A stretch of 34,472 bases of DNA from the UHGV virus genome UHGV-0176895, one strand, 5' to 3'. Position 1 is the first letter of the stretch. Every line of letters begins with the position of its first letter. Shown in pieces: positions 26,468 to 26,890 of the stretch. The stretch comes from a virus. The notes under the pieces are model-generated. The model did not search any database. It had not been told where the DNA came from and was given only the letters and a program-made list of their open reading frames with translations. The position numbers were made by a program, and so were the translations under genes.

Positions 26468-26890
26468 TTAATGCAGCGTTGTAGTTGAGCTGGACTCTGC
26501 CATTGCCACTGTCAATTCATCGCCTTCGGCTGAGATCTTAACGGTATTACTTCCTTCTGATTTAGCGCCTTTTGGTAGACCTAGCTGATCATAGATACAC
26601 AAGAATCTTGAATCATTTATAAAGGTGATTTCTGTTACAGTCCCACCTTCAACGACCTTAGAGTCTATTGATTTTATCAAATTGATATCCTGAACATTAA
26701 TGTGCTTTATCGCATCCCAGTTAAGGCTGATGTCCACGTTATCCTTTTGCATCGTTATCACATGACCGGCCTTATGCTGGGTTGTGACTTTTCCATCAGG
26801 GCTCATCGTAATCTTTTGCCCCATGTGATAAATAATTTGAGTTCCGTCTTCGAGACACTCGATTTTTGGCTCTTTAGTAAAGTCGTTCAT
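26468..26890 (-). CDS. Cargo protein, 140 aa, unknown function, between the invertible segment and the invertase gene
   Basis: ATG at 26890 with AAGGA 5 nt upstream; AT-rich; divergent from the invertase gene across a 205-bp intergenic region. No motif recognised. Confidence 0.7.
   Translation of the reverse strand: MNDFTKEPKIECLEDGTQIIYHMGQKITMSPDGKVTTQHKAGHVITMQKDNVDISLNWDAIKHINVQDINLIKSIDSKVVEGGTVTEITFINDSRFLCIYDQLGLPKGAKSEGSNTVKISAEGDELTVAMAESSSTTTLH

Follow-up and report, generated by a model that had tools for sequence, protein, structure and literature searches.

The prophage locus and its inversion system

The window, that is the whole stretch of 34,472 nucleotides analysed here, is a complete P2/186-like prophage with integrase, CI-type repressor, gpA, head, lysis and tail genes. 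Near the end of its fibre region lies a small gene on the minus strand, together with a palindrome, a crossover site for DNA inversion and a serine invertase. The features on which the following discussion relies are listed below.

23547–25064: H, tail-fibre gene, which holds the left crossover site
24583–24608: left crossover site, TTCTCACATACC-TT-GGTTTGGGAGAA, within H; outside the cassette and given for context only
26416–26441, no strand assigned: right crossover site, TTCTCCCAAACC-AA-CCTTTGAAAATG
26438–26463, minus strand: 26-bp perfect palindrome, AATGGTCACCTAT/ATAGGTGACCATT, predicted intrinsic terminator of the ORF
26468–26890, minus strand: 140-aa ORF with ATG start; predicted soluble, acidic, all-beta product of a tiny uncharacterised family
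26896–26900, minus strand: ribosome-binding site AAGGA (TCCTT on the plus strand), 5 nt before the ATG, read from the sequence
26891–27006, minus strand: AT-rich upstream part of the cassette, missing in a cassette-free relative; presumably holds or completes the promoter
27007–27095, no strand assigned: block 5' of the invertase, matching the cassette-free loci L027 and L020 at 92–96%
27096–27656, plus strand: serine DNA invertase (Pfam Resolvase 2.8e-37 and HTH_7; phrog_125 'DNA invertase' 1.3e-69)

The initial annotation described an AT-rich 140-aa gene with a good ribosome-binding site, divergent from the invertase gene, and all of this stands: the frame has a GC content of 40.9%, AAGGA is properly placed in front of its ATG, and the start codons of the two genes are 205 bp apart. 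The cassette as a whole, as delimited below, has 40.0% GC versus 51% for the window and 56–60% for J, I, FI and FII, while the fibre segment and the invertase next to it are likewise low (41–49%). An 84-aa GTG frame at 26702–26956 on the plus strand, antisense to the 5' part of the 140-aa gene, is unsupported and probably spurious.

The placement of the gene was taken earlier as equivalent to that of Z/fun in P2, and comparison with annotated P2 agrees, since the gene sits between the fibre and assembly genes and FI, opposite to the late operons. P2 fun(Z) likewise lies between the fibre-assembly region (G) and FI on the strand opposite to the late genes, its terminator is found 8 bp past the stop codon facing the convergent fibre operon, a layout which the ORF matches, and both genes are AT-rich and non-essential-looking. 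The proteins themselves are different: Fun(Z) has 528 aa, unlike the 140-aa product considered here, and BLASTP detects no homology between them (best E = 1.6). Also unlike the P2 slot, the one studied here contains an invertible segment and its invertase, with the cargo exactly between crossover site and invertase. That Z/fun is a known cargo hotspot, as was also claimed, agrees with a published account which describes the slot as a mixed-purpose hotspot, often with invertases and other, partly defence-like cargo (bioRxiv 10.1101/2024.10.15.618418); the kind of thing found here is therefore known.

The inversion system is of a familiar type. As in Hin, Gin, Cin and Pin (P1, Mu, e14, phi80 PinL), a serine invertase is combined with 26-bp sites that have a 2-bp core, one of them within a fibre gene, and with alternative fibre C-termini that come with their own assembly genes and occur in both orientations among relatives. 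The left crossover site is paired with 26415–29 by a 15-nt perfect inverted repeat, and between the sites we find two Caudo_TAP genes, G and a second one that is inverted, and also a gp53-like fibre C-terminus that lacks a promoter and starts at the site. The invertase is 72% identical to the phi80 PinL group and 52% to Cin. The homologous fibre segment is oriented one way in the window and in L004 and is flipped in L002, L003 and L011, all of which carry the cassette, so inversion went on with the cassette in place: fibre inversion persists in cassette-bearing prophages.

The palindrome begins 4 nt past the stop codon of the ORF and overlaps by 4 bp with the outer arm of the right crossover site. 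It is perfect and lies 3' of the gene, as first described, with a length of 26 bp rather than the 24 bp reported. Folded as RNA of the ORF strand it gives a GC-rich stem of 11–12 bp with a 4-nt loop, followed by AUUUUC; the hairpin has a stability of –28.3 kcal/mol (z = –4.9), which none of 200 shuffled sequences equalled. It is invariant in every one of the 14 loci compared. In IMG/VR it is present in three contigs only, all three also containing the ORF, and therefore it belongs to the cassette, as whose predicted intrinsic terminator we read it. The hairpin may also insulate the gene against the late fibre transcript arriving from the other side. In the cassette-free loci L031 and L033 a different hairpin followed by a T-run occupies the equivalent place, which suggests that insulation of the fibre segment from the invertase is a recurrent need.

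Cassette boundaries and spread within the lineage

In the Hin, Gin, Cin and Pin systems the invertase abuts its site; here about 570 bp of foreign DNA lies between them, and the ORF is no known part of such systems. The presence of an intervening gene was called unusual in the initial annotation, which proposed to compare the locus across related prophages. For this comparison IMG/VR loci encoding relatives of the invertase were fetched, and they leave the gene as unusual as was thought. In pro483 and SKA5 the invertase begins 30–76 bp after a silent fibre fragment, and in at least 30 IMG/VR relatives (invertase 70–72% identical, phi80 PinL/mEp237 group) the site-region homology stops some 62–66 bp before the invertase ATG. 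L027, with an invertase 98% identical to that of the window, has no ORF and reads site, 25 bp, block, ATG; precisely, TTCTCCCAAACC-AA-CCTTT TGTGGATTGAGATTTTTAATGTCAG is followed by a block 92% identical to window positions 27007–27095 and then by the ATG. At 96% identity of the invertase the picture is the same: L020 lacks the ORF, and the right-hand junction on an E. coli plasmid is as in L027.

Because L027 and the other relatives without the ORF keep the site close to the invertase, we conclude that an insertion of about 570 bp (roughly 26435–27006) replaced some 25 bp, with junctions at about 26435–26441 and at 27006/27007. Besides the ORF and its ribosome-binding site, the inserted DNA comprises the palindrome and, upstream of the gene, 116 bp of AT-rich sequence. 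The outer half-site found with the insertion, CCTTTGAAA, is within the range of relatives (that of L104, for example, is CCTTTGAAAT).

We also considered a third crossover-like site at 26929–26954, with which the ORF itself would be invertible, and rejected it. Its core matches AAACCNNGGTTT with 2 mismatches, and such matches number 14 in the window versus 15 expected; its arms match at 5 of 10 positions, and all 14 loci are colinear across the ORF and the invertase.

A moron, as defined for HK97/lambda-like phages, is a cassette of promoter, gene and terminator. The insertion resembles morons in being discrete when set against a near-identical module, in its atypical GC content, in having its own ribosome-binding site and predicted terminator, and in its antisense orientation to the surrounding operon. 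Unlike in morons so defined, the promoter is a candidate only, and the best one straddles the cassette junction. Matches to sigma-70 promoters within the cassette are weak (8 of 12 positions only). By eye we found a leftward TTGACA-17-TACAAG at 27035..27007, in the block 5' of the invertase, and this candidate promoter could drive the ORF; neither a LexA box nor an Ogr-type TGT-N12-ACA site was seen 5' of the ORF, again by eye only. At the equivalent place in the cassette-free L027 (2912–2945) inspection by eye reveals TTGACG-17-TAAAAA, aimed into the invertible segment. As far as comparison of sequences can show it, the gene has the anatomy of a moron and is autonomous from fibres and invertase.

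The cassette is rare. Of 5,426 complete E. coli genomes 3 have it, each time in this context, as does one of about 185,000 species-representative genomes (Citrobacter murliniae), and it was not found among 50,697 phage records or 72,556 plasmid records, tblastn included. In a collection of 5.8 billion representatives the ORF forms a single cluster at 90% identity. It comprises 24 sequences, with E. coli, Citrobacter and Kluyvera among the named sources, and its commonest variant is present in 816 contigs. The 140-aa frame is intact in all 15 ORF-bearing loci examined and has its full length of 140 aa in E. coli, Citrobacter and Kluyvera. Across 14 loci the module from the crossover core to the invertase is 98.7–100% identical, and the ORF is polymorphic at two sites, S30N and V117I, both non-synonymous and too few for dN/dS.

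The constant module ends at 26415–26428 in the 14 loci, and the DNA beyond the 2-bp core (26428/26429) differs from locus to locus in the 15 loci that were read (L001–L011, L021–L024). Past the core there may be a further fibre cassette, an Acyl_transf_3 gene (L009/L010) or, on a different backbone, one fibre set that is non-invertible (L021–L023). Thus the crossover point is exactly where a constant unit of outer half-site, terminator, ORF and invertase meets its changing partners. Such switching at the core suggests cassette exchange, whether through recombination at the site itself or through action of the invertase on secondary sites.

Two further observations were made in these loci. Among the partners in L021–L024 and L001–L011 are unrelated fibre sets whose baseplate backbone is a different one (J of 354 aa). 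In the E. coli assemblies L009 (8454–9900) and L010 the module of ORF and invertase is kept and the invertible fibre segment is gone, replaced by the Acyl_transf_3 (O-antigen acetylase-like) gene and a non-invertible 581-aa fibre; one lone, half-degenerate crossover site is left, so that the invertase looks orphaned.

A protein family of prophages and type VI loci

Profile and structure searches had been proposed for a gene described as having no recognisable motif. They returned no significant match for the ORF in Pfam, PHROG, NCBIfam, PADLOC, PDB or fold searches, in keeping with that description. Homology to a tail-fibre or chaperone component, named in the initial annotation as what would make the gene a part of the fibre cassette, was looked for by profile and by fold and none was detected; the neighbouring genes match Caudo_TAP, gp53-like and Collar strongly.

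Homologues were sought in two libraries, one of 5.8 billion cluster representatives and one of 1.84 billion representatives, the latter searched exhaustively with phmmer. Together they contain six sequences besides the cluster of the ORF itself. Phmmer on the 1.84 billion representatives gave three real relatives: P0016 (140 aa, 38% identical, E = 1e-22), P0017 (on contig L014, where the frame runs on upstream without a normal start codon) and P0018 (156 aa). The only other match, P0019 (538 aa), is a eukaryotic Ig-repeat protein with a score inflated by repeats and was rejected. Profile searches added P0020 from Serratia plymuthica, P0021, which is one half of a frameshifted copy, and P0022 from Raoultella ornithinolytica (147 aa); scans of IMG/VR and JGI metagenomes with distant homologues gave nothing more, nor did one of Rfam. 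Since these protein homologues at 27–38% identity have similar lengths, the ORF is a real gene. Its family is new, without a Pfam, DUF or PHROG entry.

All members are acidic (pI 4.6–5.3) and have no hydrophobic segment, the window protein having a pI of 5.1 and a maximum KD of 0.51. An AF2 model of the ORF product, built with an alignment, is all-beta, and the product is thus predicted to be soluble, acidic and beta-rich. In the family alignment N-terminal hairpin repeats of the form DGT-x-I-x-Y-x-G-x-K-x-T-x-Y-PDG, two in the 140-aa forms and three in the forms of 147–156 aa, are followed by a C-terminal part of about 85 residues; 13 columns are invariant, including G42-H43, F90, N92 and C98. 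The PDB profile of the CPAP/TCP10 G-box matches residues 14–64 with E = 0.003, and several homologues match Tcp10_C below threshold, the best (P0018) with 19 bits versus the Pfam gathering threshold of 36 and the window protein not at all. As a domain the G-box is known from eukaryotic centrioles, and its fold is a peptide-binding single-layer sheet. Because the scores stay under the family thresholds and the domain is of this eukaryotic kind, the likeness probably reflects a similar repeat geometry, not homology.

The genomic contexts of the distant homologues are diverse. P0016 and P0017 each follow tssE directly (TIGR03357, 63 and 80 bits versus a cut-off of 53). P0016 sits between tssE and an ImpA_N/VasL gene, and its flanks match an E. 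coli type VI locus that reads tssE, hypothetical gene, ImpA_N/VasL, where the slot is occupied by an unrelated 101-aa ORF. The two homologues are 44% identical to each other versus 84% for their adjacent TssE proteins, so the tssE slot is variable and its occupant fast-evolving. P0018 and P0020, which share 80% identity, are convergent with the gene for a giant polyvalent protein (LPD/MuF_C) or with a 194-aa deletion remnant of it, of which only the termini are left. P0022 is found at the end of a Raoultella prophage, beside an icd fragment and after dinI-umuDC; at this locus (L110) an invertase of unrelated lineage lies 3.3 kb off, with dinI-umuDC between, and the 140-aa ORF neighbouring that invertase is outside the family, as is the 156-aa gene beside P0017. 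None of the six distant homologues adjoins a recombinase, invertase or fibre gene. As no neighbour is common to these contexts, the gene most likely works alone.

On the contig of P0017 the region upstream of tssE (L014, 1–2267) has two ORFs without a Pfam or NCBIfam match, one of 359 aa and the other toxin-like and larger, with its C-terminal 395 aa present; they may be an effector-immunity pair that replaces the usual tssF/G/J genes.

Possible functions of the cassette gene

That the ORF is an autonomous cargo cassette we regard as highly probable. Wider is the proposal that it is an autonomous moron of the Z/fun hotspot, expressed in the lysogen, acting by protein binding and most likely protective for the lysogen, and this combined reading seems to us somewhat probable on balance. 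What it would involve can be put as follows. A cassette of about 570 bp was inserted between the right crossover site and the region upstream of the invertase, in the Z/fun hotspot. The gene would be transcribed from the prophage against the late operon, as are P2 fun(Z), old and tin, and the hairpin would keep its transcript out of the silent fibre cassette. The encoded beta-meander protein, small, acidic and cytoplasmic, would work on its own through binding to a second protein, and its most likely role would be protection of the lysogen, by immunity to an incoming toxin or by exclusion of another phage. Expression in the lysogen and benefit to it we infer from the parallel with fun(Z), old and tin, and from the way in which the hotspot has been described in print.

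Several findings weigh against this explanation. The sigma-70 matches are weak, the protein matches no known defence, immunity, anti-defence or toxin family, the only polymorphisms are two non-synonymous ones, and the gene always travels with this invertase allele. The last point is accounted for by a distance of 200 bp within one nearly clonal module, which is still compatible with a functional tie.

As to the function itself, the contexts favour, tentatively, a protein-binding protective factor that serves in toxin immunity or exclusion. In its small size, cytoplasmic nature, fast divergence and AT-richness, and in its occurrence in variable type VI slots and on mobile elements, the family is like the orphan immunity genes of type VI and polymorphic-toxin systems. 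Unlike these, the ORF matches no immunity-family profile, and no cognate effector was identified beside any member; the type VI-linked homologues are without the adjacent effector that marks immunity. An immunity gene is expected directly downstream of a co-oriented toxin gene, and this arrangement is not what is seen, P0016 lying between tssE and ImpA_N/VasL and P0018 and P0020 being convergent with their neighbours. This lowers the case for membership in the immunity class and is still compatible with an orphan-immunity role. In PADLOC-DB 2.0 no family was matched at E ≤ 10 by the ORF, nor any by P0016, P0018 and P0020, and no known immunity, anti-defence or toxin family matches the ORF. An enzyme or a virion part is unlikely.

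A counter-defence protein, acidic and made on infection or induction to serve as decoy for, or inhibitor of, some immune protein of the host, is an unlikely reading, if the least so of those we set beside lysogen protection. It would suit the acidity of the whole family, and two members lie beside the giant MuF_C/LPD polyvalent proteins, a class associated with anti-host functions. However, orientation and slot fit genes for lysogenic conversion, not early genes, the chromosomal type VI context is hard to square with phage counter-defence, and no likeness to known anti-defence proteins was seen. We give a little less credit to a component or helper of contractile injection machines, whether a baseplate, spike or fibre accessory or a cargo adaptor, which would account for the presence of the family both in the tail region of a myovirus and beside tssE.

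It is similarly improbable that the gene is a decaying or functionless hitch-hiker, held only by linkage in a recently spread module. The two polymorphisms, being non-synonymous, and the tiny size of the family would agree with this, as would two damaged members, the frameshift-split P0021 locus and the L014 copy without a normal start codon. Against it, the ORF is open and of full length in all lineage loci and host genera named above, its ribosome-binding site and predicted terminator are intact, and the homologues at 27–38% identity have preserved length, repeat pattern and the 13 invariant residues.

Least credible is an accessory that regulates or biases the invertase, such as an inhibitor or a directionality factor, the two genes then being a divergent module: the ORF is divergent from the invertase, 205 bp from its start, in every locus of the lineage, and the pair is kept on different backbones even where the invertible segment is lost or replaced (L009/L010, L021–L023), but these loci are one 98.7–100% identical module and count as a single observation, the 98%- and 96%-identical invertases of L027 and L020 exist without the ORF, none of six distant homologues is next to a recombinase (the nearest being that of L110, 3.3 kb away), and for the known systems Hin, Gin, Cin and Pin an enhancer and Fis suffice. 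The invertase is a neighbour of the cassette, with no demonstrated partnership.

Returning to lysogen protection, what is known and what is new can be separated. A moron in the P2 Z/fun hotspot is known, and the slot has already been noted for invertases; the exact placement between crossover site and invertase is new, and so is a family common to prophage hotspots and type VI clusters. The ORF is possibly, and rather doubtfully, the most widespread member of an unnamed beta-meander family that moves between prophage hotspots and the variable end of type VI clusters, one that could be a new single-gene protective factor (orphan immunity, exclusion or defence) riding along in fibre-cassette exchange at the crossover site.

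Hotspots of P2-like prophages have been a repeated source of new defence and lysogenic-conversion genes. The cassette is an uncharacterised occupant of such a hotspot; its product has few homologues, none of them annotated, and all are located in variable loci associated with conflict. Should it protect lysogens, it would be a very small single-protein system that ties prophage cargo to type VI loci; if it has no phenotype, it is one more orphan moron. A constant module of half-site, cargo and invertase joined to many fibre cassettes would also be a cheap route for the spread of cargo.

Other cargo was seen in the same prophage lineage. Between the integrase and the CI repressor a 558-aa gene (1827–3503, minus strand) matches the PD-Lambda-1 defence protein (PADLOC, E = 1e-119) and Pfam DUF4041 and T5orf172, and is thus a known defence gene in a third P2-like hotspot. 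In the classical old/tin hotspot, between gpA and the portal gene, a 454-aa ORF (10873–12237, plus strand) is candidate cargo; it has no Pfam match and gives weak PADLOC matches of coiled-coil type to LmuB/LeoBC (E ~1e-5), and a DinI-like gene (10260–10565) lies just upstream of it. Finally, in L001 (E. coli E41; 1–169 and 4117–4814) IS1 breaks the fibre region, and a SIR2-family gene is located just upstream of baseplate gene V, which marks another cargo slot of the same phage lineage.
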